Source: Bacteroidota bacterium
Lineage (GTDB): Bacteria; Bacteroidota; Bacteroidia; Bacteroidales; B18-G4
Direction: 5' to 3'
DNA length: 39,139 bases
Assembly: GCA_039714935.1 (NCBI GenBank)
Contig: JBDLIJ010000002.1
Coordinates: 1 to 39,139 of the forward strand
This document shows positions 9,317-39,098 of the stretch, in pieces. How positions within the stretch are numbered: position 1 is the first letter of the stretch; the number at the start of each line of letters is the position of its first letter. Under the pieces are notes generated by a model. It saw nothing but the letters and a program-made list of their open reading frames with translations, was not told the origin of the DNA and made no database searches. A program made the position numbers and the translations under genes.

Positions 9317-10240
9317 TCATTGTTGGTCAACATGGTGAAGGTATTTTTCCATATGCCCCCAGTTGATATACTCCGGTTTATTTTTCCATTCTTCAGCCAA
9401 CTGGTTAACATACTGATTGATAATATGTTCGGTTCTGTCTTTCCGGCTCTGGTCTTCTTTTCCTTTATCCAGTGGTCTTCTGATATCGACAGTTATCTGA
9501 CCATGCTTACCGGGCATAATAAATAAGGGCATGATCTCAGCCCCTGTGCTTAAAGCCAGCTCGGCATAGCTTCCCCTGAAGCCTCTGAGTTTACCGATAA
9601 AAGGAAAAGTTATGCTGGATTTACCGTGATAACCATCACCAAGCACGTGAATAATGCCTCCTTCTTCGAGGACATGTTTTGCTTTAATCATTAACTTAAA
9701 AAGATCCGCATCTGAGAAACTGTCAAAGACAAGTGGGTTTGATTTTCTATGCTGGTTTATTCCCGTAAACTTCAATGAATTGGCGGCTCCTACGCCGACA
9801 ATGGTGTGGAATTCTTTATATCCCATCCTTGGAAACATTGAAATGGCAATCTCTGCCAATCCAACATGGCTGCCCAGCATAATGACACCTCTCCCTTTTT
9901 CGTAATGCTCCTGAAAAATATCAAGATTATTTATATGAATATATTTCTTGAATTTGCGATCGCTCAAATTAGACATTGCCATGACACGCCATTTTTTAAG
10001 AAAAAAGGCGTTAAGCATTTTGCTGATCAATTCGGGATTGCTTTCCTTTATGCCTGTTTCCTGCAAAAATGTATTGATCAGGTGTACTTTCTTTCTAAAG
10101 TACTCATTCCTGGCATATGAGGTGTTGCAAAACCACCCGATCATAGCTAAACCTGTTCTGTATGGTATTCTTTTTCCACCGCGGGCTGATGTAAAATAAT
10201 TTTTAAATCTGTTGACAATTTGCTTTTTATTGATCTTCAT
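9317..10240 (-). CDS. LpxL/HtrB-family (lipid A biosynthesis-type) acyl-carrier-dependent acyltransferase
   Basis: By-eye alignment to E. coli LpxL shows three parallels. GSHVGLAE matches the H-x4-E catalytic motif (GIHFLTLE). MIKAKHVLEEGGIIHVLGDGY matches MIKALKKGEVVWYAPDHDY. KPEYINWGHMEKY matches APEQYMWLHRRFK. Length is similar (307 vs 306 aa). Confidence 0.7.
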   Translation of the reverse strand: MKINKKQIVNRFKNYFTSARGGKRIPYRTGLAMIGWFCNTSYARNEYFRKKVHLINTFLQETGIKESNPELISKMLNAFFLKKWRVMAMSNLSDRKFKKYIHINNLDIFQEHYEKGRGVIMLGSHVGLAEIAISMFPRMGYKEFHTIVGVGAANSLKFTGINQHRKSNPLVFDSFSDADLFKLMIKAKHVLEEGGIIHVLGDGYHGKSSITFPFIGKLRGFRGSYAELALSTGAEIMPLFIMPGKHGQITVDIRRPLDKGKEDQSRKDRTEHIINQYVNQLAEEWKNKPEYINWGHMEKYLHHVDQQ

Positions 10241-10244
10241 GTTT

Positions 10245-12035
10245 TTACTCTTGCAATTGTATGATTGTTAGTGCTAATTCTTCAATTGTTGGTGTTTCAA
10301 TGAAACTATCAATTTCAATTTTGATGTTAAACTGCTTTTCGATGGTATCGAAAGCTACAAATAGCTTAAGCGAATCGTGCGCAGCCTCAAGGATGTTTTC
10401 GGTCACACCTATTGGATATACTTCAAGTTGTCTTTCGAAGATGGAAACCAATTGTTCTTCTACCGGGTTCTTTGCATGTTTAATGTCACGATTGTCAGCT
10501 AAGCTCTCCCAATGGGGATCCGGGAGGGAGCGATAATCAGTTTTTCCGGATTCAGTCTTTGGAAGGGTATCAAGCTGCATGATATAGGGAGGTACCATAT
10601 ATTCGGGCAGCCTTCTGACCAGGGAGTTCTTTATATCAGCCATCTCAACAGACTTGTCAGGACTGCTTACATAGTAGCCGACAAGCATCTTGTTTGCCTG
10701 AGGATCTTCTTTAAGGGCGACGGCAACCTCCTGTATGTCTTCATTCGAGAGAAGTGTGTTTTCAATTTCCCCAAGATCAGCACGTTGCCCGCGTATCTTT
10801 ACCATAGCATCCTTTCGCCCGACATGAACGATGAGCCCATCTGCATCTTTATAGGCGAGATCACGGCTTCGAAATGTCCTGTGCCCGTCATGATTATGAA
10901 AATCCCTTTTGGTAAGTGAAGGATTATTCCAGTACCCTAAAGCAGTGTAATTGCTGTGGATGACCATTTCTCCGACGATGTTGGGATCGCATTCCTCTCC
11001 GCCTTCATTAACAATATCAATATCCATCCCTTCAATAGCATTCCCTATAGGGATAATATTATGTTTTAAAATTGTATCGTGTTGGATGCGAAATGCCCTT
11101 GCCAGGTATAATTCAGTGCTGGCATAAATATTTATGATCTCAGTGTGTCGTTTAAGGAAAGGCCATATCTGTTTGATATCATTATGGTACAATGATTCAC
11201 CTCCCAGGAGGAGAATCCTGAGTTTGGAAAACTTGAAGCCTTTATTTAACGTAACCCTGAAATGCCTGAGTACTGAAGGAATCATAAGGCTGATTGTTAT
11301 CCCATGAGAAATAAAAAAGTCAGCCAGGCTGGGAAACCCCTTTTTCTTAAGGTCATACATATGCATAGTCCCGCCGTTAAGCATTGCTCCCAGGAAAGGC
11401 ATGGCATGGGCCGAGAATCCAATGGAAAAGTAATATGAAAAAATATCTTCAGGTGTGATATCGATAAATTCGGAAAAGCGTTTAGTAAAGTGAAGCTGGT
11501 TTTTATGGCTGGTAAATACTCCCTTCGGTTCACCGGTAGATCCTGATGTGTAGAGGATGTGCGCAATATCATCAGGCCTGGGTTTTATATTGGGCTCACT
11601 TGTATTTGTTATGAAATTTATTTCATCAATATTTATTACAACTGCAGCACTGGCAATGGCTTTCACCTGCCCGTAGTTTTCATTATCAGTAATAATGGCA
11701 GATGCCATAGAATCTTTCACTGCAAATTCAAAACGATGTGCCGGCCAGGCTGTGTCAAGAGGAACATATGCATTCGCTGCTTTTAGTATTCCAAGGATGG
11801 AAATGAACTGTTGTATGCTGTCAGACAGAAAAAAAGCTACTTGCTTCTGCTTTGTCGTTAAGCCAAGAATTTCATTTGCAATGACATTGGCCTTATTGTT
11901 TAAAGCATCATAAGTGATGCTCTCATTAGCATCACTTATGGCAATTTTGTCGGGAAACATGCTTGCCATGAGCTCAAAGCGTTCAGTAAGACTCTGGTCT
12001 ATGGTGTCAAAAGGAATATGCTTTGCTTTTTTCAT
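10245..12035 (-). CDS. Stand-alone NRPS-like adenylation domain fused to a carrier protein (A-PCP didomain)
   Basis: A3 is LYTSGSTGEPKG, A5 is NIYASTE, A7/A8 is RSRDL..GRKDAMVKIRGQRADLGEIE, A9 is LPEYMVPP and A10 is SGKTDY. A C-terminal carrier helix follows with AHDSL (phosphopantetheine Ser). No C or TE domain is present. Confidence 0.9.
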   Translation of the reverse strand: MKKAKHIPFDTIDQSLTERFELMASMFPDKIAISDANESITYDALNNKANVIANEILGLTTKQKQVAFFLSDSIQQFISILGILKAANAYVPLDTAWPAHRFEFAVKDSMASAIITDNENYGQVKAIASAAVVINIDEINFITNTSEPNIKPRPDDIAHILYTSGSTGEPKGVFTSHKNQLHFTKRFSEFIDITPEDIFSYYFSIGFSAHAMPFLGAMLNGGTMHMYDLKKKGFPSLADFFISHGITISLMIPSVLRHFRVTLNKGFKFSKLRILLLGGESLYHNDIKQIWPFLKRHTEIINIYASTELYLARAFRIQHDTILKHNIIPIGNAIEGMDIDIVNEGGEECDPNIVGEMVIHSNYTALGYWNNPSLTKRDFHNHDGHRTFRSRDLAYKDADGLIVHVGRKDAMVKIRGQRADLGEIENTLLSNEDIQEVAVALKEDPQANKMLVGYYVSSPDKSVEMADIKNSLVRRLPEYMVPPYIMQLDTLPKTESGKTDYRSLPDPHWESLADNRDIKHAKNPVEEQLVSIFERQLEVYPIGVTENILEAAHDSLKLFVAFDTIEKQFNIKIEIDSFIETPTIEELALTIIQLQE

Positions 12036-12055
12036 TTTAGTATTTATTACAGGCG

Positions 12056-14194
12056 CTATGTTGATTTGATAATACTTTCATATACATTCAACATCTCCAG
12101 GGTACTTTTTCTTGTTGAGAACCTGAGAGATTGTTTCATGGCTTTTTTTCCCAGATCATTTCTCAATTCATTATTAAATACCATCTGTTCATATTTATCG
12201 CAAATATCTTCTACACTGTATGGGTCTGCGCCCAGGCCGCCATCACTCGCAACTTCAGGCATGGAGCTGTTGTTTCCATAGATTACCGGTGTGCCACAAC
12301 GCATGGCTTCCAGCAATGGCAGGCCAAAGCCTTCATAGTAGGAAACATAACTTAGCGCCAGGGCTTCAGAATATAGGGCCGACAGGTCGCTGTCATCAAT
12401 AAATCCTGTAAAAGTAATGAGATCGCTGTATCTCACATGCTGTTTCATTTTCCATCCTTGCTTACCAGCCACTACGAGGGAGAGGTTTAGCCCTTTATGC
12501 TTTTTATGAAGCATCAGAAAGGCGCTAATCGAATGATGTAGATTTTTTCTTGGTTCGATAGTGGAGAGAAGCAAGATGAATGGCATGTCTTTTCGGATCC
12601 CATACTTATCTCTATGTTTACCACTATCCTCTTTGTTAACCTGGTATAGGAATTTGTCTTCTTCAACCGATTCATAAACAAGGTGAAGGCTTTCTTCCGG
12701 CAGGGAGAGAAATTTTTTAGAATCCTGCAATGTCGAATTTGAAACTGCAATTACATGGGCTTGCTTCTTCTGAATGAGCTTTAACCCTTTTGCAGCATTC
12801 CTGATATTTATCCCGGTATGAAATTTCGGAAACAGTTTATGTGTGAAGTCGTGAATGGTAAACACCAATGGTACCCTGGTATACTTAAAAGGCCAGTAAT
12901 GTTGTTGTAAGGGGATGTGTATCAGGTCATAGTGTGAGATCTTTTCTGATATCGCCCTAAGTTCCTGTTCTTGTCTGTATCTTAGATATACTGTGTACAA
13001 CATTCTGACAGGGAACATTAAAAGACCTCTGATCCAGTTTAGGAAGCTGAGCATGTACTTTTTTGTCAGATCATAGCTTTTATGAAAGATCATGATATCA
13101 CGCTCTGTCAGCCAGTTGATCCAGTTTTCGGGTACCAGCTCTTGAATGAATTGCTCTATCTTTTCAAAAAAGCCTTTTTTGTTTACCGGTCTGGACTTGC
13201 TGCTATCATCTTTGATTGTATCACTGCCGGTATCAAAATCCGCTTCCATTTTTCTGGCATATTCCTGAAGCGGTATAATATCTTTATTGATCAGCAGGTC
13301 AATTTCCCATTTACTTTTATCATTAACTGTAATAGGGATCAATCCTTTGATCAGTCCTGCTAAATAACGTTTAACGCCATCATTGTCGCTCGTATCCATC
13401 TTGTTGGCTTCGAGCAGGATATGGTATTTTCTGTTAGGGGCAGGGGAGGGGGTGCCCATTTTTTTCAGTATGAGGTGGTCAAGGTCAGGATCGGGAAGTG
13501 ATAAGCTTCCATCCCTGCTATAACCAAGCGCTTCCATCGTATTGCCATGGAAAGACCAGAATAGATCGTGCAGCTCATCGGGCATTTCATCTTGCCAGCC
13601 TCCCGAAATCCCTTTGCGAAATGCTTTCTCCGAAAGGTTTTTAGATGCTGTGTCGCTATATCCCCAGCTTTTTCTACCTCCATAGGCTGCATCGCCTTTT
13701 TTAAGGTTGTCAAAAGTAGGGAGCTTGCTAATATCCGGGCTGGGGAGATCATACACTGTCCTGATCCTTTCGACTACGCCAATGGGATCTGTCAGCAGGT
13801 CTTCATAGCGGATGATCAGATCGGCCCTTTCAACCCAGCTTTTAACATTATGTGACCAACCACCGAAAAAGGTATCTTTTTCCGCAAAGATGGCGGCTTT
13901 TAGGTTCTCATAGTAGTCAGAACCCGGAGCAACAATATCTGACCGTTGATGTGCGATGGAAACAAGTGCATCACGTCCGTCCCTGACAAGGTAAATCGAT
14001 TTGATATTGGTGTCGTTGGGTTCGAGTTGGTGAGGGAGGAGGTGTGTTTTTACAAAAGGGTGATCGAAGTAACTCTCCTCCAGTGGATGATCTTTCTCAC
14101 GGTGAAATTCGCCCGAGCTTAATCCATATACTTCAAAAAGTATATTTCTGACATATGTGTTGCCCGAACGGGGAAAAGATGCTATCCAGATCAT
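12056..14194 (-). CDS. Bifunctional sulfotransferase (N-terminal) and GT4 glycosyltransferase (C-terminal) fusion
   Basis: The N-terminus has [11 protein letters not shown] (5'-PSB) and [12 protein letters not shown] (3'-PB). The C-terminus has YYEGFGLPLLEAMRCGTPVIYGNNSSMPEV (GT-B Glycos_transf_1). It is a single 712-aa ORF. Confidence 0.85.
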   Translation of the reverse strand: MIWIASFPRSGNTYVRNILFEVYGLSSGEFHREKDHPLEESYFDHPFVKTHLLPHQLEPNDTNIKSIYLVRDGRDALVSIAHQRSDIVAPGSDYYENLKAAIFAEKDTFFGGWSHNVKSWVERADLIIRYEDLLTDPIGVVERIRTVYDLPSPDISKLPTFDNLKKGDAAYGGRKSWGYSDTASKNLSEKAFRKGISGGWQDEMPDELHDLFWSFHGNTMEALGYSRDGSLSLPDPDLDHLILKKMGTPSPAPNRKYHILLEANKMDTSDNDGVKRYLAGLIKGLIPITVNDKSKWEIDLLINKDIIPLQEYARKMEADFDTGSDTIKDDSSKSRPVNKKGFFEKIEQFIQELVPENWINWLTERDIMIFHKSYDLTKKYMLSFLNWIRGLLMFPVRMLYTVYLRYRQEQELRAISEKISHYDLIHIPLQQHYWPFKYTRVPLVFTIHDFTHKLFPKFHTGINIRNAAKGLKLIQKKQAHVIAVSNSTLQDSKKFLSLPEESLHLVYESVEEDKFLYQVNKEDSGKHRDKYGIRKDMPFILLLSTIEPRKNLHHSISAFLMLHKKHKGLNLSLVVAGKQGWKMKQHVRYSDLITFTGFIDDSDLSALYSEALALSYVSYYEGFGLPLLEAMRCGTPVIYGNNSSMPEVASDGGLGADPYSVEDICDKYEQMVFNNELRNDLGKKAMKQSLRFSTRKSTLEMLNVYESIIKST

Positions 14195-14889
14195 GCTTTC
14201 AGTTTCATTCGTTCTTCCCTTAGTTCTATTGCCTGTTCATATATCTCATAGTCGACTTCGTTTAAACGTCTGATCTTATCCAGGGTTTCTTCATCAATTT
14301 CCGGTTTGTCGCCTGTAATATTATGTTCAAAGATCTTAAAATCTTTCCATCCCAGCATATCGGATAATTGTTCAAGATCTTCTTTATAATGCTCTGTAAG
14401 GCCTATGAAATAAAATTCCTCAGGGGCCATTCCATGGAGAAACTTTGATATACGATTTCTGTTAGCTTCGGCACTGGCATACTCGATAAGGCTCTTCTGC
14501 ATCTTGGAAAGGATGTTTAAGCCTTTTGCTTCTTCGTTCACTTCATTTATTAATACCTTTTCCAGGTAATAATAATTTGAAATAACACGTTCGGCCGGTT
14601 CCCGAATCCATGTAATAAAGGGTGCTTTCCTTGAGATGTCAAAGTTGTTTGTTAAATGTTTACAGGAGAAATGGCCATGCAGAACATGTATTCCTCTTTT
14701 TAGCTTTGATCCTGTGAAAACCTCCTCGTTAAGCTCCACCTGGCTCCGGATATCTATTCTGGCTACATGCTCTTCCCCATAAACTTCCTTTAGAATATTA
14801 CGGAAGCTGGTGCCTGCTGTTTTAGGAATGTGCAAAGAGACAAGTTTTACATTTGTCTTTATTTTTTCGCTGGTATTAAATAAGCCCAT
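14191..14889 (-). CDS. Sulfotransferase family 2-like protein (tandem paralog A)
   Basis: Motifs are LVSLHIPKTAGTSF and TWIREPAERVISNYYY. There is a 4-nt overlap with the downstream gene. Confidence 0.8.
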   Translation of the reverse strand: MGLFNTSEKIKTNVKLVSLHIPKTAGTSFRNILKEVYGEEHVARIDIRSQVELNEEVFTGSKLKRGIHVLHGHFSCKHLTNNFDISRKAPFITWIREPAERVISNYYYLEKVLINEVNEEAKGLNILSKMQKSLIEYASAEANRNRISKFLHGMAPEEFYFIGLTEHYKEDLEQLSDMLGWKDFKIFEHNITGDKPEIDEETLDKIRRLNEVDYEIYEQAIELREERMKLKA

Positions 14890-15589
14890 TTACCCCCCTT
14901 AAGGATTTAATTTTTTTATAGAGTTTTATGTCATTTTCATTTAAAGCTGCTACCTCATTGCGCATATCATTGTTAATATCCCCATATTGGGTTTTGCAAT
15001 CGTTGTTAAATTTAAAGTCAGAGCTATTATTGATATGTGGGATTTCTGTAATATCAGTCCATCCCATCAATGATGCCAGTTCAGAGATATCTTTCTCGAA
15101 TTGTTCCATAATGCCAATAAAGAAGAAGTCATCAAGTTCAATACCGCTTAAAATTGCTGACATCCTGTTCCGGCGTTTGGCTTGTGCAGCATATTCCAGT
15201 AAGCTAAAATTTTCCTTTTCCTTTTGCCTGTCGGGCGTGTCACCCTCACGTATCCTCTTCATGAAGTAGTAATAATTTGATATGACACGGTCAACAGGGT
15301 TTCTTACCCAGCTTATCACCTTTGGATTGTCCTTTTCAATAATATGCAGTACCTGTGAAATATACAGGTGTCCGTGAATTCCCCTGATGCCTTTGGGCAG
15401 GTCGAGCTTAATATCGCCTTTATTTCCTGATTTTGGAAAATAATGATGCTTTTCAAACCTTTGGTCAAGAGACCGCCCGTAAATTTGCTTAAGGACTTTA
15501 TGAAATGACCTGCCTCCGGTTTTCGGAATGTGGATGGATACTATTTCCACTCTATTTTTATTTGCTTTATCCCCCTTGATCAGTCTCAT
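14876..15589 (-). CDS. Sulfotransferase family 2-like protein (tandem paralog B)
   Basis: Motifs are IVSIHIPKTGGRSF and SWVRNPVDRVISNYYY. There is a 14-nt overlap with paralog A. Confidence 0.8.
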   Translation of the reverse strand: MRLIKGDKANKNRVEIVSIHIPKTGGRSFHKVLKQIYGRSLDQRFEKHHYFPKSGNKGDIKLDLPKGIRGIHGHLYISQVLHIIEKDNPKVISWVRNPVDRVISNYYYFMKRIREGDTPDRQKEKENFSLLEYAAQAKRRNRMSAILSGIELDDFFFIGIMEQFEKDISELASLMGWTDITEIPHINNSSDFKFNNDCKTQYGDINNDMRNEVAALNENDIKLYKKIKSLRGVNGLI

Positions 15590-16254
15590 CTTATTTTTCT
15601 TAGTGCCTTCACCTCATTATATTGTGCAATATCCTGAACATTCAATGATGCGATATGCTCCCTCATTTCCAGACTTATATCTTCCTCTTTCGTTTTACAG
15701 TCATTCTTACTTTTAAAATCTGAGCCGTCTTTGGCATGTGGCATTATTAAATGGTCTGGCCAGAGAAGACGATCTTTCAGCATCTCAAAATCTTCATCCA
15801 ACTGTTCATAAAGGCCTATAAAATAGATCTCATCTAATTTACATCCTTGCAATTGAAAAGAGGCTTTATTACGGTTTTCATTTAATTCTGCATATTCTAT
15901 AAGGCTATAGTCGCCGGTGCTCGTCTTTCGTTCATCTGCTTTTCCAAGCCTGATGCGCAGCATTGAATGGTAGTAATTTGAGATCACCCTGTCAACAGGA
16001 TCTCTGAGCCAGCAGATAATCCGGGTTTCATTCTTGCTGATGACAGCATCAAGCTGCGCAACTTTCAGGTGGCCATGTATGGCCATTGTATGGGCCGGGA
16101 TATCTTCAGGCTTAACCATTTCTGACTGTGCCTCGCCAAAGAGGTTTATTGTATTCAGGCGAAAAACGAAATCACGTGAATAAACCTGCTTCAGAACACG
16201 GAATAGTGAACTGCCTCCGGTTTTTGGAATATGAACAGATACAAGGTCGATCAT
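15586..16254 (-). CDS. Sulfotransferase family 2-like protein (tandem paralog C)
   Basis: Motifs are LVSVHIPKTGGSSL and CWLRDPVDRVISNYYH. There is a 4-nt overlap with paralog B. Confidence 0.8.
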   Translation of the reverse strand: MIDLVSVHIPKTGGSSLFRVLKQVYSRDFVFRLNTINLFGEAQSEMVKPEDIPAHTMAIHGHLKVAQLDAVISKNETRIICWLRDPVDRVISNYYHSMLRIRLGKADERKTSTGDYSLIEYAELNENRNKASFQLQGCKLDEIYFIGLYEQLDEDFEMLKDRLLWPDHLIMPHAKDGSDFKSKNDCKTKEEDISLEMREHIASLNVQDIAQYNEVKALRKIR

Positions 16255-17127
16255 TTATTTTGAATTATTATTTTCATCCTTCTTATAGCCTGCAGATAGC
16301 ATCACATCGCCATACTTCTTCCAGAATTTTTCTTTTAGCTCATCGGGCATCTCATCTTTCCATGCTTCTGTTTTTCCGCTCCTAAAAAATTTTGAGTTAA
16401 AATCATCCTTCTCTTCCTTCGACAGATTTTTACGTTTTTTACCACCAAAATGTGACCCTCCTGACCTTTGTGTTTCAAATGTGGGGACCTTATCCAGCCT
16501 GGGCTCCGGCAGGTCAAGGAATTCCTTGATCCTCATGATCTCACTTACGGGGTCACTGATAAGCTTTTCAAAATGTATTACTAAGTGGGCAATTTTCGTC
16601 CAGGAAGATACATTCTTTCCCCATCCTCCGAAATAGGTTCCCATCGGAGCCCGGATAGATTCTTTCAGGTTCCTGGTAAAATCCGTCCCTTGCTCAATGA
16701 TGTCTTTTCTGTGGTGGGCCATTGATACCAGGGCGTCTCTTCCATCGCGGATAAGGTATATGATACGGACATCATCTTCACATGCAGGCAGGATGCGTGA
16801 TGGTACTTCATGGGTTTTAATGATCCGGAAACTCAATTGATGCTTCTTTATCTCCATTCTCTTCTCCTTTGCCGGAGAGATGGCCCGCAGCTTTTTAAGG
16901 CGCTCATAATTTCTCAGGTTCTTCTGAGCTTTTTTATAAACATCAATATTGTTCCATGAGTATACCTCAAATACATCCATAAGTATGTTCCTCAGAAAAG
17001 TATTCCCTGAACGTGGAAAAGAGGCAAGGATGATGTTTGGCTTTTGAAACGCAGGGCCTGTATTATTCGTCCCTGAGGTTAAGCTTTTTAACCTTAATGG
17101 TTTGCTTATATAGCGCAAAAATTTCAT
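16255..17127 (-). CDS. PAPS-type sulfotransferase (Sulfotransfer_1/3-like), paralog of the N-terminal domain of the fusion protein
   Basis: [12 protein letters not shown] and [12 protein letters not shown] are present, and the protein aligns by eye along its length with aa 1-235 of the 12056-14194 product. The start is uncertain (ATG at 17127 or 17184). Both candidates lie inside the upstream wzt-like gene. Confidence 0.8.
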
Positions 17128-17830
17128 CCGCTGTCCCAATACCGAGACACTCGCCCTGATGAAGTAGAACAACCCTGTCTGCATAGTGTTTTATTGTACT
17201 CAGATTATGACTAACGTGCACGATAGTGCGTCCTTTCACAAATGATTCTGCAAAGATCTCATCGGAGCGGGCCCTGAACCTCTCATCACCAACTCCTCCA
17301 AAAAACTCATCCATAAGAAAGATGTCGGCCTCGGCATGCACGGCAACAGCAAATGCCAGCCGGGCACGCATCCCTCTTGAGAAGTATTTAATCTTGGTAT
17401 TCACAAACTTTTTTAATTCTGCAAATTCAATGATCTTGTCAAATTTTTCCCTCAGATCCATGAGTTTAACACCCATCACTGCCCCATTAAGAAAAATATT
17501 CTCGCGGGCGGTAAGTTCACTGTTAAATCCAAGGCCAAGGCTTAAACGAATATAATTTCCATTTATCTCAGCTATCCCACCCCTGTCGGACTGATAAACG
17601 CCTGTCATAAGATGGATGAGCGTAGATTTCCCACTTCCATTTGCCCCCACAATACCAAGAAATTCACCTTTTTTTACTTCAAGGTTAATATTTTTTACTG
17701 CTGATATCTTTCGCTTGTTCTTACCAGTGATAAAAGCAGCTGACTTTTGCATGAAGTTTCCCGGGTATTTATCCCTGATGGAAAAAGTTTTACTCACATT
17801 GGTTAAACGTATGGCTATATCATCATTCAT
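17063..17830 (-). CDS. Polysaccharide/teichoic-acid-type ABC exporter ATP-binding protein (Wzt/TagH/KpsT-like)
   Basis: Walker A is GANGSGKST, signature is FSRGMRARL, and Walker B is [13 protein letters not shown]. It lies directly downstream of an ABC-2 permease. At 255 aa it has no C-terminal glycan-binding extension. Confidence 0.9.
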
Positions 17831-23920: not shown

Positions 23921-24145
23921 CAGAGTAAATAAAGTGAGCTAGCATTTTAAGTAAGCTAAAGTAATTAAAGTTCTTGAAATCCGAAATTCGAAAGCACCTA
24001 CTGCCAATTGCCTCACACCCCCCACACATGCATAATATCTGCATAATTGTTGATTTTCAATGAGAAATGTTGTATTTTTACAGTCAGCCACATTCTTATC
24101 TTTAATCTGAAGGGTTTTTTACTGTTAAATTTAACGCCTTCAGTC

Positions 24146-25897
24146 ATGAAAACTTATTTTCTTACAATTGCTGTACTCATTAGTATCCCTTTATTGAATA
24201 CAGCTTACTCACAGCCATTGGAATATGGTGATGCTCCTGAGGCAGTGATCGCGTATCCGTCTAGCGGCATTATTGGTACGTTCCCCACTTGTATCCAGGT
24301 AGGAACGAGTTTTGTTCAGCACAATAATTTTGGTGCACAACTGGGCCCTGCCTTCGATTTTGAGATAGATGGAAACGGGGGGCTGTGCCCCACTTTTGCA
24401 CCCTACGATAATGATGAATGTTATGCTGACGGGGATGCAGGATTGCTCATCCCCGAGCCGTATACCATAGTAAATAATCAGGTTGTTACCTGTCCTAACA
24501 GCACGGGTACTTCATTGGGGCAAACATGTGCTATTGCAACCTGGGGTGGGAATGTAGACATAGATGTAAGTAATTTTATGCCTAACCAGACACCCGGAAT
24601 AATGAATGTGGTGATTGATTTTAATCAGAATGGCGTCTGGGGCGACATGGTGACTTGTCCGACGGGGCAGGTGCCTGAGCACATATTGCAAAACTTTGTA
24701 GTACCATGGGGGTATGCAGGCCCGCTATCAGGGCTGATGCCGCCTGCATTTACCATCGGCCCCAATACCGGTTATGTATGGGCACGATTTACGATATCAG
24801 AAGCTCCGGTTGCAATAAATTGGGACGGACAGGGCGTGTTTGAAGATGGCGAGTCAGAAGATTACCTGATCCATATCCATGCACCTACATCCGATGCGGA
24901 ATATGGTGATGCTCCTGAGGGCGCAATTGCTTACCCCTCAACTTCATTGAATGGGGCATTCCCGACATGCATCAGTGTTGGGCCACCAAACCATTACGTA
25001 AGCCACATGCTTGAAGAGACGCTCTACTGGGGGCCAACGAAAGATTTTGAAACCGATGGCAATGCCGGCCTGTGTAGTCCTTTTATCGCACCCTATGATA
25101 ATGACGAATGCTATCAGGATAATGATGCAGGCCTTATTATCCCTGCTCCATACACCATCCAGGTGAGTGGTGGCAGTCACAACGTCGTGCCCTGTGTGGC
25201 AGGAACTGCCGGCATCCTTGATTCTATCTGTAATATGGTACACTGGGGTTCCGAACTCGATATTCATGTTACCAACCTCAGCGCCATGGATGCGCTTGCC
25301 AATGTGTTGATGGATTTCAACCGTAATGGCAGGTGGGACCTGGATACCACCATGCAATGCAGTGGCAATACAGTATATGAGCATGTGCTGGTGAACTTTG
25401 TTGTTCCCGCAGGATACACCGGACAACTTTCTGCCCTGAACCCACCTGCTTTCCAGGCAGGACCTAATGTGGGGTATATATGGACAAGGTTTACAGTGAG
25501 CGACATCAATGTTACACCGGACTGGGACGGTGTGGGAAGCTTTGAGATGGGAGAGTCAGAAGATTACCTGCTGTACCTTGATCTTACTCCCGGCCTGATT
25601 GATTATGAAGGTTATGGAGAGTTGCTGAAACTGAAGATCTATCCTAATCCAACCAATCATTCATGTATGATAGCATATGCATTGCCCTATGCTGCTGATG
25701 TAAGTATCGATATTTATGATATTCGGGGCAGGCAGGTCGCCAATGTGTTGCAGGCATCACAGATGGCCGGTGAGCATGAGATTAATTGGAACGGGTCTGG
25801 TTCAGATGGCCATACTGTTGGTTCAGGGATATATATCGTGAAAGTAAGCATTGATAATATCCCCGTTGAACATGCCAAAGTGTTGATCAGCAATTAG
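24146..25897 (+). CDS. Secreted protein with two tandem GEVED-like Cys-rich domains and a T9SS type A C-terminal sorting domain
   Basis: The signal peptide is MKTYFLTIAVLISIPLLNTAYS. Two repeats each read EYGDAPE..IAYPS...FPTCI...DGN.GLC..(F)APYDNDECY.D.DAGL.IP.PYT...W.RFT.S...W.G.G.FE.GESEDYL. The C-terminus LKIYPNPTNHSCMIAY...GIYIVKV is Por_Secre_tail-like. Confidence 0.7.
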   Translation: MKTYFLTIAVLISIPLLNTAYSQPLEYGDAPEAVIAYPSSGIIGTFPTCIQVGTSFVQHNNFGAQLGPAFDFEIDGNGGLCPTFAPYDNDECYADGDAGLLIPEPYTIVNNQVVTCPNSTGTSLGQTCAIATWGGNVDIDVSNFMPNQTPGIMNVVIDFNQNGVWGDMVTCPTGQVPEHILQNFVVPWGYAGPLSGLMPPAFTIGPNTGYVWARFTISEAPVAINWDGQGVFEDGESEDYLIHIHAPTSDAEYGDAPEGAIAYPSTSLNGAFPTCISVGPPNHYVSHMLEETLYWGPTKDFETDGNAGLCSPFIAPYDNDECYQDNDAGLIIPAPYTIQVSGGSHNVVPCVAGTAGILDSICNMVHWGSELDIHVTNLSAMDALANVLMDFNRNGRWDLDTTMQCSGNTVYEHVLVNFVVPAGYTGQLSALNPPAFQAGPNVGYIWTRFTVSDINVTPDWDGVGSFEMGESEDYLLYLDLTPGLIDYEGYGELLKLKIYPNPTNHSCMIAYALPYAADVSIDIYDIRGRQVANVLQASQMAGEHEINWNGSGSDGHTVGSGIYIVKVSIDNIPVEHAKVLISN

Positions 25898-26072: not shown

Positions 26073-27152
26073 ATGACCATGAATTATTTAAACTTTACAC
26101 AAAGATTTGTTTTAATTGTACTATTGTCTTTTTTTACCATTTCATGTGAAAAGGATGAAATGGAAAAGACTGATGAGGTCAACGCAACTGCCTCTCTGAA
26201 AGGGGAAGCACAGGGATGTGAGGTCATCACCGACCTGATGGCAGGGCAAAATCTTGATGTTGGCGATGTCTCGGTAATTGATGATGGAACCAATATTTAC
26301 GTCACCTATGAGATTTTTGAGCCGGGATGGGGCATGACGCAGTCTCACCTGCATATTGCCGATGAGTTGAGCGGGATCCCGCAAACGCCAAAAGGAAATC
26401 CGAAGATAGGGAAGTTTGATTACCAGCAGGAACATAATATGGTTCAGAAATATACCTATATCGTGCCCAACAGCTGGCCGGCAGGAACAGAAGTGGTGAT
26501 CGCTGCACATGCTGTTGTCGAATATGATTACATGAGTGCTGCTGCCGGTGCACTCCCTGGTGCTGCAGGCCTTTTTCTGGAATATCCGTCTCATGTCAGC
26601 TATTTCACAAGCATAGTCACCCAGGGTGGGATATTGAATTTTGACAATTATGAAGGATGGTGCATCGATGCCGGACACGGGATATACCCCTATAAAGATT
26701 ATGATGTAATAGTGTATTCAAGCTATGGCGATCTAAGCAACCTTGGAAATGTAGACCACCCCGAACACCTCGACAAAGTGAACTGGGTGCTTAACCAGAA
26801 CTTTGTCGGTCAGCAAAGCTCGGCTTACGGAGCATATACAGCTTCTGATGTGCAAAGGGTCATATGGGAGCTGGTTGATGATAATCCTCCGACATATGTT
26901 GGAAACTGGGACAGGGTGCGCGAGATCCTTGAGCTCGCATATATTTATGGTGAAGGTTACGTTCCCGGCTGTGATGAGTTTATGGCAGTGGTGCTTGAAC
27001 CTACCGACAATGCGCAGGTGACTATTATTGAAGTAGCAGTGAGTGAGCTGACTAACGGATGTGACTACGGAGAAGAAACGGCCTGGGCCAGTGGCCTTCC
27101 GTTTCCAGGCAACAGCTGGGCGATGTACTTTATGTATACGATCTGCCCTTAA
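26073..27152 (+). CDS. Lipoprotein, paralog 1, with an inserted thioester-domain-like module
   Basis: The lipobox is LLSFFTISC. It shares an N-terminal domain and the closing motif YGEETAWASGLPFPGNSWAMYFMYTIC with the 27511 gene. About 180 extra aa lie between them. Confidence 0.7.
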   Translation: MTMNYLNFTQRFVLIVLLSFFTISCEKDEMEKTDEVNATASLKGEAQGCEVITDLMAGQNLDVGDVSVIDDGTNIYVTYEIFEPGWGMTQSHLHIADELSGIPQTPKGNPKIGKFDYQQEHNMVQKYTYIVPNSWPAGTEVVIAAHAVVEYDYMSAAAGALPGAAGLFLEYPSHVSYFTSIVTQGGILNFDNYEGWCIDAGHGIYPYKDYDVIVYSSYGDLSNLGNVDHPEHLDKVNWVLNQNFVGQQSSAYGAYTASDVQRVIWELVDDNPPTYVGNWDRVREILELAYIYGEGYVPGCDEFMAVVLEPTDNAQVTIIEVAVSELTNGCDYGEETAWASGLPFPGNSWAMYFMYTICP

Positions 27153-27229
27153 GACATAACGAGACTTAATGATGACCCGGGTGCGAATTGCAAATGTTTA
27201 AACCCGGTATTAACCCAACTTAAAAATCG

Positions 27230-27260
27230 GCTGCCCCGTACTCCTCGGGGTAGCTTTTTT
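27230..27260 (+). terminator. Intrinsic terminator
   Basis: gctgccccg-tactcct-cggggtagc followed by a T6 run. Confidence 0.7.
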
Positions 27261-27510
27261 CTTTCTGTTCATAAAATATTGTAAAATGTGATTACACCAG
27301 ATTCATTGAGCAAGCGCAAAGATTCTTAGGATAAATACATTAATTGACTGATTATAAGTAATGCCAGCTGTAAGTTAGTCAATGTAAAATTTGTAAACCC
27401 AAAATATTTATAGTATCTTGCCCCAAAGACTTGCCGCATTAGTGTTTTTCATGACCGGAAAAAGCAATAGCAGGCACTTTGCAGAAAGTCTTAACCCAAA
27501 ATCTTAAATT

Positions 27511-28509
27511 ATGATACGTACGATAAACCTGAAATGGGTATTCCTTACCCTTATCCTGGTGATGGTATTGCCTTCATGCCAGAAAGAAGAACAAAATTCC
27601 TCTGAATTAAGTACTCAACAAGCTCAGCTGAAGCAATCAGCAGGTGAATGTGATGTGGTCACAGACTTGCTTGCGGGACAGTTCACTGATGTTGGTGCCG
27701 TGAGTGTTACTCATGATGAGATGAACATTTACGTGACCTATCACATACTGGAAGCTGGCTGGTGTCTTAGCGAAACGCATATGCATGTTGCCCCTAACCT
27801 GGCGGGAATACCCCAAACAAAAAGTGGTAATCCAAAGGTTGGACACTTCGAATATCAGATGCAGCATGATTGCATCACTGAATACACTTATGCGGTGCCC
27901 ATCATCTGGGAGGAAGGTGCTACCGTTGTGATCGCCGCCCATGCGGTTGTTGATGGAGATTTTGGTGAAGAAACTGCCTGGGGCGATGGTGCTCCCTTTC
28001 CCGGGAACCAGTGGGCCACCTATTTTAGTTATCATATATGTGGTGAAGGGGGAGGAGGCCTGGGCTCTGAAAGCGAAGTGGCATATGCCTACGCCCCTGA
28101 AGGATCGCAGATCGCCAGCCAGTGTTTCCTGACGATGAACATTGCAAATGAATGGGGATGGCATCTGGGAGCATTCAGTGAGGACTACAGCTTTGAATTA
28201 TGGGCGCTGCCCAATACATGTGATTTTACCAATGGTTTTCATGTTGGATATGTTAATGTCGAATTTGTTGGTGGGAATAAAGTTGATGTAAGCTACCATA
28301 CATTTCCAGGCTACTCATTACATGAGGCACACCTCTGGGTCAGCACTGAACCATGGGTGGCTCCGCCTATGGTCAACCACGAAGACTTTCCCTATCATGC
28401 CTATGACCTTGGTGGCGTGATGGTATACTCATTCAAAAACATTATGCACAGAGGCCCGATGTTCATGATCGCACATGCACGGGTGTATGGGGTGATACAC
28501 GTTGGGTAG
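27511..28509 (+). CDS. Lipoprotein, paralog 2 (duplicated beta-rich domain, no insert)
   Basis: The lipobox is LVMVLPSC. The N-terminal domain is contiguous with FGEETAWGDGAPFPGNQWATYFSYHIC. A GGGG linker and a second, diverged copy of the N-terminal domain follow (GYVNVEFVGGNKVDVSYH..EAHLWVS..FMIAHARVYG). Confidence 0.7.
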   Translation: MIRTINLKWVFLTLILVMVLPSCQKEEQNSSELSTQQAQLKQSAGECDVVTDLLAGQFTDVGAVSVTHDEMNIYVTYHILEAGWCLSETHMHVAPNLAGIPQTKSGNPKVGHFEYQMQHDCITEYTYAVPIIWEEGATVVIAAHAVVDGDFGEETAWGDGAPFPGNQWATYFSYHICGEGGGGLGSESEVAYAYAPEGSQIASQCFLTMNIANEWGWHLGAFSEDYSFELWALPNTCDFTNGFHVGYVNVEFVGGNKVDVSYHTFPGYSLHEAHLWVSTEPWVAPPMVNHEDFPYHAYDLGGVMVYSFKNIMHRGPMFMIAHARVYGVIHVG

Positions 28510-36302: not shown

Positions 36303-39098
36303 ATGAGGAAGCTTATCTTCATATTCTTATTGCTCACTTCGGCACTGGTCATGGCACAAATAGATGCAGGGCCCGACCAGGTGATCTGTAATGGCAATAG
36401 CACAATCTTGCAGGGCTCAGGACCACCGGTGTTCGATTTCGTATGGAGATCTAATCCTTATGATCCTACATTAAGCGATTCTACATCGCTGACACCAGCA
36501 GTACAGCCCTCTGTAACAACAGTGTATACCCTTGTGGGACGGTCAGTTGATTTTGTTAACCTCGTTGTGAATGGTAATTTTGAACAGGGAAACACCGGAA
36601 TTACAAGCTCATACACCTATGCTCCGGGCCCCAACGGCATTTGGACCAACGGCACCTATGCTATCACCGATGATGCAAGCTATAATCATAATAATTTTAC
36701 GTGCGACAACGACCACACAACAGGTACCGGTCATTTTATGGTTGTAAACGGTTCATGGACACCCAATACAGTGGTATGGTCCCAGCTGATCAACGGCATC
36801 ACCCCTGATACCGAATATGAATTTTCAACCTGGGTGTCAAGTTTATCGCCGGTGAGCCCTGCAATATTGCAGTTCAGCATTAATGGTGAACTTTTGGGCA
36901 CCCCATTCCAGGCATCAAGCGATACTTGTGTGTGGCACCAGTTTTTTGAAGAATGGAATTCAGGGACGGCAACAAGCGCTGAAATAAGTATCGTAAACCA
37001 GAATACCGCAGCCAATGGTAATGACTTCTCACTTGACGACATTCAATTTTCGATAGTCACCTATTATTACGACAGTTGTACAGTCAATGTAATCCCCGTA
37101 CCTACATCGGATTTTGTATTGCAACCGGCTGCCTGCATGTCTGATACCGTTGAGATCCTATATTCCGGAACAGCTGCAGATACCTCTGTTTTTTACTGGG
37201 ATTTTGGATCTGCAACTGTCTATAGCGGGTCAGGTCCCGGTCCGTATAAGGTCAGGTGGCCGACAGCAGGGGCAAAAACAGTATCATTGCATGTTGATTA
37301 CTCGTGTTTATCGGATACCACAGTGAAAAGCATACAAATAAACCAGAATCCCGATGTGTCAATTACTGCCGATCAAACTTCAGTCCCATACGGGTCAAGC
37401 ACCTTCCTGAACGGGGATATTAATGCTGTCCCCGGGCCGTATGATTTTCAATGGGATCCTGCCAGTGAATTACAGGATCCTTTTATTTTAGATCCGGAGA
37501 CAAAACAACTTTTTCAAAATACGGTTTTCACCTTAACAAGCCAGGACCAAAGCTCTTTGTGCAGCGCTTTTGATACTATATTGATCGAAGTTACGGGCGG
37601 ACCATTGTTGATTATTTCTTTTTCGGCCAGCCCTGATACCATTTGTTATGGCGATAGTACAATCCTTAGTGTAAGTGTTACGGGGGGCTCGGGAGATTAT
37701 TATATCTCTTGGACCTCTAATCCACCGGGATTCAATCATTATGGCCAGGAAACACAGGTGAAAGTTTCACCTCAGCTTAATACAACATTTATTATTGAAG
37801 TGTCTGACGGGTATACAACTATACCTCCGGATTCATTAACGGTGATCGTAATCCCGCAAATTGAAATGATTGCACAACCCGCTGATATAACCATCTCCCA
37901 GGGGCAGGATGCTTCCTTCAGTGTTAGTGCCAATTATGCGGAAAGCTACCAGTGGCAGCTGAGTACCGACAATGGAGCTAACTGGACAGATGTGACAGAT
38001 AATGCTGTTTACAGCGGATCAACAACAGCCGTACTGTCAATAACGAATGCATCATACTCGATGGACAATTATTTATACCGCTGCTTGCTTGAAGGAGATT
38101 GCATGCCCGTGTGCAGTGATAATTGTATGCTAAGCGTTATTGACTCTCCACAGCTGCTAGGAACCCTATCAGGTACACGGGAATGCGAGGGGGATACCAT
38201 ATTTGTTCCCTGCAGCATCAGCAATTTTATTGAGATAGACACCTTCAGTATGGCAGTCGCTTACAATACTGCTTTAATGCATTATGCAGGATTGTGGGAT
38301 ATCAACAGCGAATTAACATCCATTGAGGTATATAACAACGGCGATTCGATAAGTATGTACTGGTCGTCACAGACGGGCGCTACAATAAGTGATGGGAAAA
38401 TTTTCGATATTGCATTTATTGCAAGCTCATCAGGAGCTGATTCAGTGATGTGGAAACCGGAACCGTTCATCAGGAATATCTCAGGATTTTATCCTGCACT
38501 GCTGCAGGCTTCAGCATATGTTGAAATTGATCCCTTGCCTGTTAACCCCGATACAGTTGTTGCTGATCCTGCCGTTGTTATTCATGATGAGGTTACTGAT
38601 ATTATCCTTGAAGCTTATGGCGGTTCAGGGAATTACATTGAATGGACATCGGGAAGTTGTGACGGTGATTCGATCGGGGCAGGGAATTCTGTTACTTTAT
38701 ACAGACCTGACCAATCAACAACTTATTATGCCAGGTGGATAAACCAGTGTGGTAAGAGTGAATGCAGGCAGGTAGAGGTGATCGTTGAAGATGTTATCAT
38801 AGATGATTTTATTGTCTCTGTACCTAATGCCTTTTCCCCTGATGGTGATGGCCTGAATGACAAGTTTGGTATAATAACTTCGGGTGATCTGCCATTTTTT
38901 GAGATGACTGTATTCAACAGGTGGGGACAGATGGTATTTCACTCAAGTGATCAGTTTCAACTATGGGATGGTACATACAATGGCGCAAAATCCCCGGTGG
39001 GCATGTATGCCTGGATTGTCAAATATCAATATGTATTAAGAGGCACAGGATCCGAAATTAATGTACAATCAGGCACAGTAATTATAGTCAAAAACTGA
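36303..39098 (+). CDS. Large multidomain surface protein with a T9SS type B (gliding-motility-associated, CHU_C) C-terminal domain
   Basis: The C-terminus is VPNAFSPDGDGLNDKFGI...FNRWGQMVF...WDGTYNG..SPVGMYAW. Upstream are a jelly-roll/CBM-like module (NLVVNGNFEQGN...GHFMVVNGS), PKD/Ig-like repeats (..YQWQLSTDNGANWTDV..YRC) and a cohesin-like segment. Confidence 0.85.
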   Translation: MRKLIFIFLLLTSALVMAQIDAGPDQVICNGNSTILQGSGPPVFDFVWRSNPYDPTLSDSTSLTPAVQPSVTTVYTLVGRSVDFVNLVVNGNFEQGNTGITSSYTYAPGPNGIWTNGTYAITDDASYNHNNFTCDNDHTTGTGHFMVVNGSWTPNTVVWSQLINGITPDTEYEFSTWVSSLSPVSPAILQFSINGELLGTPFQASSDTCVWHQFFEEWNSGTATSAEISIVNQNTAANGNDFSLDDIQFSIVTYYYDSCTVNVIPVPTSDFVLQPAACMSDTVEILYSGTAADTSVFYWDFGSATVYSGSGPGPYKVRWPTAGAKTVSLHVDYSCLSDTTVKSIQINQNPDVSITADQTSVPYGSSTFLNGDINAVPGPYDFQWDPASELQDPFILDPETKQLFQNTVFTLTSQDQSSLCSAFDTILIEVTGGPLLIISFSASPDTICYGDSTILSVSVTGGSGDYYISWTSNPPGFNHYGQETQVKVSPQLNTTFIIEVSDGYTTIPPDSLTVIVIPQIEMIAQPADITISQGQDASFSVSANYAESYQWQLSTDNGANWTDVTDNAVYSGSTTAVLSITNASYSMDNYLYRCLLEGDCMPVCSDNCMLSVIDSPQLLGTLSGTRECEGDTIFVPCSISNFIEIDTFSMAVAYNTALMHYAGLWDINSELTSIEVYNNGDSISMYWSSQTGATISDGKIFDIAFIASSSGADSVMWKPEPFIRNISGFYPALLQASAYVEIDPLPVNPDTVVADPAVVIHDEVTDIILEAYGGSGNYIEWTSGSCDGDSIGAGNSVTLYRPDQSTTYYARWINQCGKSECRQVEVIVEDVIIDDFIVSVPNAFSPDGDGLNDKFGIITSGDLPFFEMTVFNRWGQMVFHSSDQFQLWDGTYNGAKSPVGMYAWIVKYQYVLRGTGSEINVQSGTVIIVKN

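Follow-up and report, generated by a model that had tools for sequence, protein, structure and literature searches.

The window analyzed here comprises 39,139 nucleotides of contig JBDLIJ010000002.1 (assembly GCA_039714935.1), from a bacterium assigned to the Bacteroidales (phylum Bacteroidota). On its + strand, at 26073..27152 including the stop codon, lies a gene for a 359-amino-acid (aa) lipoprotein into which a module resembling a thioester domain (TED) is inserted. TEDs have been nicknamed the bacterial "chemical harpoon". The presence of such a module in a Bacteroidota lipoprotein had been proposed in a preliminary description of the locus; profile hidden Markov models (HMMs), the predicted fold, its topology, and residue conservation all agree with that proposal, indicating that the insert is a genuine but divergent, minimal Class-I-like TED.

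The open reading frame (ORF) is present as it was first described. Since homologs begin MNYL..., translation probably initiates at the ATG at 26079 (Met3 of the 359-aa ORF); the automatic gene call (P0001, 330 aa) begins at Met30, so that the signal peptide and lipobox (26073-26162) are missed. All features of the gene given below are on the + strand. A signal peptide with a lipobox, read from the sequence, extends up to the lipidated Cys25 (...FFTISC; 26073..26147). The first part of a host beta-sandwich N-domain, common to this protein and a neighboring paralog, spans aa ~42-153 (26196..26531); the inserted TED module, modeled as six strands and a three-helix bundle, occupies aa 154-331 (26532..27065); and the closing strands of the host sandwich (YGEETAW...GNSWAMYFMYTICP), placed by alignment with the paralog and by the model, complete the protein (27066..27149). 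In a BLASTP comparison, aa 6-153 align with aa 5-151 of the paralog (48% identity, E=3e-46), and aa ~331-358 align with paralog aa 150-177, contiguous with the first block in the paralog. Since the two blocks flanking aa 154-331 adjoin directly there, the ~178 aa between them are an insertion that interrupts a beta-sandwich left uninterrupted in the paralog, in line with the ~180 aa (aa ~152-331) originally estimated. The four motifs on which the proposal had been built occur in the order claimed (EGWC197IDAGHGIYP, LDKVNWVLNQ, SDVQ261RVIWELVDD, and FMAVVLEPTDNAQVTIIEV), and the codons named for Cys197 (TGC, 26661-26663) and Gln261 (CAA, 26853-26855) are correct.

The checks suggested along with the proposal included a search with the Pfam TED family PF08341 and an AlphaFold model. 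PF08341 was the only match among 24,736 Pfam families. Relative to its curated gathering cutoff of 22 bits, the whole protein falls below, at 21.0 bits (E=4.7e-4), and the isolated module above, at 22.5-22.7 bits. The control TIEpLS20, encoded on plasmid pLS20 (locus L082), is a functionally supported TED whose C68S mutant is non-functional in conjugation (PMC8092201), and it reached only 23.6 bits on the same model; pairwise identity among solved TEDs descends to 12% (PMC4450167). The PF08341 model is weak even for genuine TEDs. PF08341 was matched individually by 8 of 24 close homologs and, in the multi-phylum set, by 32 of 46; the best E-value there was 1.8e-6, and in neither set does a second Pfam family recur. 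The Cys falls on PF08341 column 4 alike in the TED lipoprotein, in the relative L007, and in TIEpLS20 (Cys68). NCBIfam models match none of the TED lipoprotein, its relatives, and the TIEpLS20 control. A homolog search with TIEpLS20 returned a single protein, and the plasmid sequences matched by the module in tblastn were all family members from Rhodobacteraceae, named only for their SdrD_B domains.

The AlphaFold2 model of the full-length protein has a mean predicted local distance difference test (pLDDT) score of 85.5, rising to ~90 within the module, and a module-only model built from a 21-sequence alignment has a pLDDT of 88.4 and a predicted template modeling (TM) score of 0.86. The confident Foldseek neighbors of both models in the PDB are TEDs only, namely 5A0G (CpTIE-TED), 5A0L (SfbI-TED), 5A0D (CpTIE C138A), and 2XID (Cpa). 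CpTIE-TED 5A0G was retrieved with E=1.5e-4 and 9e-4, a probability of 1.00, and TM-scores of 0.54-0.57, with the whole domain covered; the next non-TED match for the module had a probability of at most 0.07. Identity of the module to solved TEDs is 10-14% in the Foldseek alignments. According to DSSP on the two models, the module consists of four strands (164-170, 178-183, 192-197, and 209-216), three helices (230-241, 257-268, and 279-292), and two final strands (303-310 and 317-322). Class II TEDs are defined by a beta-sandwich insert that Class I TEDs lack (PMC6194298), and the predicted fold, a six-stranded barrel with a three-helix bundle and without such an insert, fits Class I. Homology of the module to TEDs is regarded as highly probable.

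In characterized TEDs, the Cys that enters the bond is found in a [YFL]CΦζ motif of strand C and its partner Gln in a weak ΦQζΦΦ motif of the C-terminal beta-strand, whereas the Gln and Trp of a TQxxΦW motif on helix alpha2 hydrogen-bond to the backbone of the Cys and are dispensable for the bond (PMC6194298, PMC4450167). Universal conservation among TEDs is limited to the Cys of strand C and the Gln of the last strand (PMC6194298); the TQxxΦW motif is common, but neither universal nor essential (PMC6194298, PMC4450167). In the lipoprotein, conservation and the PF08341 register point to Cys197 (26661..26663) as the predicted thioester-forming Cys, in a W-C-I-D motif ending the third strand. 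The strand position (192-197) agrees with the published rule, and the Trp before Cys197 is an aromatic variant of [YFL]-C-Φ-ζ. The motif D-V-Q261-R-V-I-W265 (26847..26867), which the model and conservation identify as the TQxxΦW motif with its structural Gln and Trp, lies inside the helix 257-268, the alpha2 of the module; the family consensus is (V/I)QxAIW, with Val or Ile in place of Thr. The last beta-strand carries Q315-V-T-I-I-E-V (27015..27035), and conservation together with the published rule marks its Gln315 (CAG, 27015-27017), which opens the strand, as predicted thioester-forming. Because the bond-forming Gln of characterized TEDs sits on the C-terminal strand, Gln315, and not Gln261, is the predicted partner of Cys197.

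Among 195 near-full-length module copies, Cys197 is kept in 193, Gln261 in 192, Trp265 in 194, and Gln315 in 187, and the residue before the Cys is Trp in 155, Tyr in 22, and Phe in 16. In a 46-sequence alignment covering more than 10 phyla plus Archaea, Cys197 and Gln315 are invariant and Gln261 is conserved in at least 90%; of 340 copies, 319 keep the whole Cys197/Gln261/Gln315 triad. Mean-field direct coupling analysis of 328 module copies (effective number of sequences 285) recovered the betaP-betaQ hairpin and was uninformative for the Cys strand, whose positions are invariant. The proportions also compare well with Class I: Cys197 and Gln315 are 118 aa apart, the Cys lies ~37 residues into the beta-subdomain (38 in CpTIE), and the helical subdomain spans ~80-85 residues (~88 in CpTIE). 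Published Class I Cys-Gln spacings are 129 in CpTIE (Cys138-Gln267), 152 in SfbI, and 153 in PnTIE (PMC4450167). The most conserved stretch of the family is helix alpha1, defined by the model and by conservation, with the motif P-E-H-L-D-K-V-N-W-V-L-N-Q at aa 230-242 (26760..26798) and the consensus PE(N/H)LD(L/K)VNW(I/V)LNQ, in which D234, N237, W238, and N241 are invariant. A few members deviate from the triad, with Cys replaced by Ser in L031 (a 'delta proteobacterium' metagenome-assembled genome, MAG) and by Arg in L033 (Blastocatellia), and Gln315 replaced by His in P0020 and P0021; such proteins may be non-covalent derivatives.

Two further Cys residues of the module, Cys300 (26970..26972) and Cys330 in its C-terminal tail (27060..27062), are predicted disulfide partners because they co-occur strongly across the family: both are present in 167 copies, neither in 20, and one in 24, an odds ratio of ~42 uncorrected for phylogeny. 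Both are missing in P0025 and P0032, whose module is C-terminal. The Cys300-Cys330 disulfide probably clamps the exit of the module, as would be expected for a domain outside the cytoplasm.

Surface display is predicted from the residues after the lipidated Cys. The optimal lipoprotein export signal (LES) of Bacteroidota, C-X-K-(D/E)2-X, was defined experimentally and drives surface exposure (PMC5080379). In the TED lipoprotein, the sequence ...TISC25-E-K-D-E-M, with the signal E-K-D-E directly after the Cys (26148..26159), has the form found in LES-dependent surface lipoproteins, and the SC(E/Q)K(D/E) junction is kept in Bacteroidales homologs. Because C-E-K-D-E matches the export signal, the lipoprotein is predicted to be surface-exposed on the outer membrane.

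Taken together, these data suggest a surface-exposed outer-membrane lipoprotein with a beta-sandwich body and an inserted Class-I-like TED, an explanation to which a probability of roughly 0.6 is assigned. Export would proceed through Sec, with lipidation at Cys25, and the C-E-K-D-E signal would then have the protein flipped onto the cell surface. Folding would bury Cys197 on strand C beside Gln315 on the last strand, at the interface of barrel and helices, where the two side chains would react spontaneously to form an internal thioester with loss of ammonia (-17 Da); Gln261 and Trp265 of helix alpha2 would assist by hydrogen bonding to the Cys backbone, and the Cys300-Cys330 disulfide would probably clamp the module's exit. 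A primary amine on a target could then attack the thioester, yielding an isopeptide bond to Gln315 and tethering the cell covalently, possibly reversibly. The linkage formed by SfbI-TED was reported to be reversible and pH-dependent (2026 preprint), and the link proposed here may be likewise. It is considered likely that the thioester actually forms, and covalent adhesion is, by a smaller margin, the favored function.

Several observations weigh against this explanation. The whole-protein PF08341 score is 1 bit under the curated cutoff, and the structural match to solved TEDs is moderate (TM 0.54-0.57, root-mean-square deviation ~5 Å). Searches of PDB chain sequences with the whole protein and with 21-sequence and 46-sequence module profiles gave no TED, returning only chance-level hexosaminidase matches; this negative weighs little, because the genuine TED control TIEpLS20 likewise finds no solved TED by phmmer against PDB sequences. 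An hhalign comparison of the family profile with the single TIEpLS20 sequence aligned only GxxxWCIDxD with GDTIVYCIDPD, and was non-significant. Trp, not Tyr, Phe, or Leu, precedes Cys197; A-Q-V-T-I is a loose fit to ΦQζΦΦ, with Val at the ζ position; and the lipoprotein lacks a stalk that would hold the domain away from the surface. Finally, the NW..N motif of alpha1 lies outside the published TED signature, and given this family-specific motif the chemistry could differ from that of known TEDs.

This last point leads to the alternative that survives best, albeit as an unlikely one: a TED fold without a thioester, in which Cys197 would stay a free thiol, act as a redox or metal ligand, or be the nucleophile of some other reaction, and the Asp, Asn, and Trp residues of alpha1 would form a non-covalent binding site or a catalytic site. 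The strongest conservation in the family does fall in the motif ENLDLVNWILNQ, with its four invariant residues, and natural variants without the Cys (L031 and L033) or without Gln315 (P0020 and P0021) exist. However, the strand-C Cys and last-strand Gln are kept across bacteria and archaea, with 319 of 340 triads intact, the module has no invariant His, which makes a Cys-His hydrolase or transglutaminase site unlikely, and the TED bond forms spontaneously once the fold brings both residues together. In the preliminary description, the thioester had instead been placed between Cys197 and Gln261 of DVQRVIW. Gln261 is indeed very highly conserved (192 of 195 copies) and belongs to the most recognizable TED motif, which the PF08341 alignment covers; however, the Gln of TQxxΦW is a structural residue in all characterized TEDs, being located on helix alpha2, hydrogen-bonded to the Cys backbone, and unneeded for the bond. 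Gln261 itself lies mid-helix (257-268) in the AlphaFold2 models, and it is Gln315, on the last strand, that is invariant in the broad alignment. The Cys197-Gln261 pairing is thus very improbable, and with it falls the caveat that its 64-aa spacing was short, since the predicted pair Cys197-Gln315 spans 118 aa, near the 129-153 aa of Class I. Least credible of all is a chance similarity, with coincidental Cys...Gln motifs in an unrelated alpha/beta domain: single Pfam matches reach modest E-values (1e-4), the module is 10-14% identical to solved TEDs, and PDB sequence searches were negative, but 32 of 46 diverse homologs match the same sole Pfam family in the same register, two models retrieve only TEDs at probability 1.0 (next non-TED at most 0.07 for the module), topology and proportions match, and solved TEDs are themselves down to 12% identical.

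Other assignments were considered and rejected. A papain-like or transglutaminase-like cysteine enzyme is contradicted by the lack of a conserved His in either the 195 or the 46 sequences and of any peptidase or transglutaminase match in Pfam or Foldseek. An alpha-2-macroglobulin or complement-type thioester was dismissed because the module has no CxEQ, no alpha-2-macroglobulin or complement Pfam match, and a different fold. The 359-aa lipoprotein, having neither a stalk nor an LPXTG motif, is not a TIE protein.

The surface-lipoprotein explanation can be set beside characterized thioester systems. The module resembles the Class I TEDs (CpTIE-TED 5A0G, SfbI-TED 5A0L, and PnTIE-TED) in its six-stranded barrel and three-helix bundle, in the strand-C Cys within aromatic-C-Φ-ζ, in the QxxIW motif on helix alpha2 and the Gln on the last strand, in the absence of a beta-sandwich insert before that strand, in its size of ~175 aa, and in its Cys-Gln spacing (118 versus 129-153). 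It differs from them in having Trp before the Cys and Val, not Thr, before the motif Gln, in passing, according to the model, from strand D to alpha1 without an alpha0 helix, in its invariant alpha1 D..NW..N and likely Cys300-Cys330 disulfide, and in being carried by a lipoprotein of a diderm rather than by a sortase-anchored, stalked TIE protein. Insertion of a Class I TED into another beta-sandwich-type domain has a precedent in Cpa (Spy0125; 2XID), the pilus tip adhesin of Streptococcus pyogenes (PMC6194298). In Cpa, an isopeptide domain within a sortase-assembled pilus plays the host, whereas the host here is an unannotated, lipid-anchored sandwich in which no isopeptide bond is evident because it has no invariant Lys; an isopeptide host domain was rejected on the same ground. 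TIEpLS20 (pLS20 gene 34, Bacillus subtilis) has its Cys on the same PF08341 column and a similarly weak score (23.6 versus 21-22.7 bits), and its role as a conjugation adhesin demonstrates TED use in cell-cell adhesion unconnected with pathogenesis; in contrast to the module, it is a Class II TED (beta-sandwich insert, slipknot), matches PF20610 (TED_2), and has CnaB-type stalks and a Gram-positive host. The bacterial alpha-2-macroglobulin of E. coli, ECAM/YfhM, is a lipoprotein. ECAM/YfhM and complement C3/C4 share with the module a Cys-Gln thioester that covalently captures nucleophiles, in the case of ECAM within a Gram-negative bacterium. However, they have an unrelated alpha/alpha-toroid fold and a contiguous CxEQ and are protease-triggered and periplasmic, whereas the Cys and Gln here are 118 residues apart without CxEQ.

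The module belongs to a large family. An exhaustive profile search, counted as cluster representatives at 50% identity, gave 2,834 representatives with a limit of E <= 1e-3 and 1,900 with a limit of E <= 1e-10, with up to five copies per protein. A scan of one genome per species gave 113 relatives, of which 80 loci were tallied by record title; the search pattern was derived from the alpha1 motif of this subfamily and therefore favors it over canonical Gram-positive TEDs. Pseudomonadota (mostly Rhodobacterales) account for 22 of the 80 loci, Cyanobacteria for 20, Archaea for 11 (Promethearchaeota 5, Hodarchaeota 2, Methanomassiliicoccaceae 2, Methanocella 1, Methanobacteriota 1), and Bacteroidota for 7, followed by Ignavibacteria and Planctomycetota (3 each), "Delta proteobacteria", Acidobacteriota, NC10, and Anaerolineae (2 each), and Calditrichales and Paceibacterota (1 each); the classical Gram-positive phyla contribute 4. 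Many of these loci are from MAGs, and the cultured carriers Arenibacter, Jejuia, Leptothoe, Anabaena, Paracoccus, Poseidonocella, Cereibacter, Dinoroseobacter, and Ruegeria confirm the spread beyond them. The family also includes two chromosomal proteins of Haloferax with Tat signals (WP_151138648.1 and WP_151109147.1).

Architectures are varied. Among 371 module copies, 209 share the layout of the TED lipoprotein, lying within a beta-sandwich that ends in the ETAW closing motif, in proteins with a median length of 363 aa, and the others are N-terminal (66), internal (41), C-terminal (29), or placed after a sandwich without the closing motif (26). An N-terminal module is followed by SdrD_B stalks in a cyanobacterium (L022); in L025, an Acidimicrobiia MAG, it is followed by SpaA_4 stalks and a sortase signal, LPYTG, which is the canonical TIE layout. 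In the cultured flavobacterium Arenibacter nanhaiticus (L019, 5815-7818), an N-terminal module within a lipoprotein precedes four DUF7467 repeats, a stalk-like arrangement unlike that of the TED lipoprotein. A Paracoccus protein (L049) combines cadherin, SdrD_B, and Big_9 domains with a C-terminal module, a Promethearchaeota protein (L008) has a VWA domain and a sandwich with an inserted module, and two giant proteins, P0040 (3310 aa) and P0041 (3283 aa), carry five and two modules, respectively. By their domain content, the larger family proteins look like adhesins. Among the 120 best matches, every publicly given name is "hypothetical" or "uncharacterized", and a precomputed PF08341 call exists for only 3. 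The claim that the locus represents a new context for TEDs in Bacteroidota accordingly holds in part: a lipoprotein-embedded TED is upheld, but it is not an isolated case, since the module occurs in thousands of diderm and archaeal proteins.

The host beta-sandwich (26196-26531 and 27066-27149) has no Pfam or NCBIfam family match. His146 is invariant in it, and His92 and Trp86 are nearly so; Foldseek found only weak likeness to DsbD-alpha, the AA10 lytic polysaccharide monooxygenase, Cu/Zn superoxide dismutase, and reeler sandwiches, and a metal site in the sandwich is conceivable. The sandwich adjoins the module in 26 of the 80 loci and is also found with VWA domains (P0026, P0028, and L008). 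In the window, the tandem paralog lipoprotein (27511..28509, + strand) has, by BLASTP, the same N-domain without the TED insert and an extra C-terminal domain of ~150 aa that faintly resembles the N-domain (HLWVS / IAHARV); its export signal, C-Q-K-E-E, is LES-like. The tandem of the two genes is kept only in the closest Bacteroidales MAG (L001, 2708-5150), and no conserved neighbors other than the paralog were found across the loci compared, so that synteny gives no pointer to a target. Between the two genes, 77 nt past the stop codon, a terminator-like GC-rich hairpin with a T-run (27229..27265, + strand), a consensus match only, is compatible with the TED gene closing a transcript ahead of the paralog; terminator-type matches in the DNA are no more numerous than in shuffled sequence.

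The surrounding DNA is Bacteroidota-like, with CarboxypepD_reg-type TonB receptors, C-terminal domains of the type IX secretion system (T9SS; Por_Secre_tail and CHU_C), and glycosyltransferases, and the nearest relatives of the TED lipoprotein gene are in Bacteroidales MAGs. The product of the upstream gene (24047-25897, + strand) is secreted and combines two GEVED-like repeats with a FlgD_ig-like domain and a T9SS sorting domain, Por_Secre_tail; this gene is not kept beside the TED gene in other loci. A further surface protein nearby, of 931 aa (36303-39098, + strand), has Ig_7 and a CHU_C T9SS sorting domain. A run of genes on the - strand (9317-17184) encodes, among others, an AMP-binding and PP-binding (carrier) protein as well as a sulfotransferase-GT4 fusion; judging from the two of its genes that were scanned, the run may be a cluster for modifying glycolipids or polysaccharides.

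According to a 2026 preprint, TEDs are prevalent among Gram-positive bacteria, in Firmicutes and Actinobacteria, and the preliminary description's view that they are described essentially from Gram-positives agrees with the open-access papers and preprints searched. Monzon et al. (2022) found that many real TEDs escape Pfam and are recognizable from predicted structure; their TED clusters are of Gram-positive-type fibrillar adhesins (e.g., E. faecalis Fss3), and no lipoprotein, diderm, or archaeal TED is described there. Set against the open-access literature and preprints, the chemistry and fold are rated as known, the cellular context, architecture, and phyletic range as new, and the family as essentially unannotated. 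As a caveat to this novelty, a few members already pass PF08341, and database browsers may therefore show scattered TED matches outside Gram-positives. A 2025 survey of isopeptide bonds leaves open whether other intramolecular covalent bonds are equally widespread, and a TED family in diderms and archaea bears directly on the spread of such bonds beyond isopeptides.

A broader, still tentative reading is that thioester-mediated covalent adhesion is an ancient module across prokaryotes, with ~2,800 representatives in this one compact family, most of them proteins of ~360 aa that carry the TED within a beta-sandwich, and not a speciality of Gram-positive pathogens. If this possibility, which falls somewhat short of even odds, were borne out, the module would be displayed via lipid anchors, Tat or Sec signals, T9SS-era surface proteins, sortase, and giant multidomain adhesins. 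Its hosts include Bacteroidota, Cyanobacteria, Rhodobacteraceae, Planctomycetota, bacteria of the candidate phyla radiation, Asgard archaea, methanogens, and haloarchaea. If the reading is true, such a module would let cells fasten themselves covalently, and possibly reversibly, to particles, to polymers, or to partner cells, with syntrophic or consortial life styles as one example, and the D..NW..N of alpha1 may be the sign of a target pocket or a bond chemistry particular to this family.

The family in diderms and archaea has an intact Cys/Gln pair, and genetics is established for the genera of some of its cultured carriers. Should the bond form, the Pfam and NCBIfam models would need extending, and a compact, disulfide-clamped TED of ~175 aa could serve protein engineering. 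Covalent adhesion would then have to be considered for surface lipoproteins of Bacteroidota, for giant adhesins of cyanobacteria and roseobacters, and for surface proteins of Asgard archaea and methanogens, and it may be much more widespread than has been assumed.

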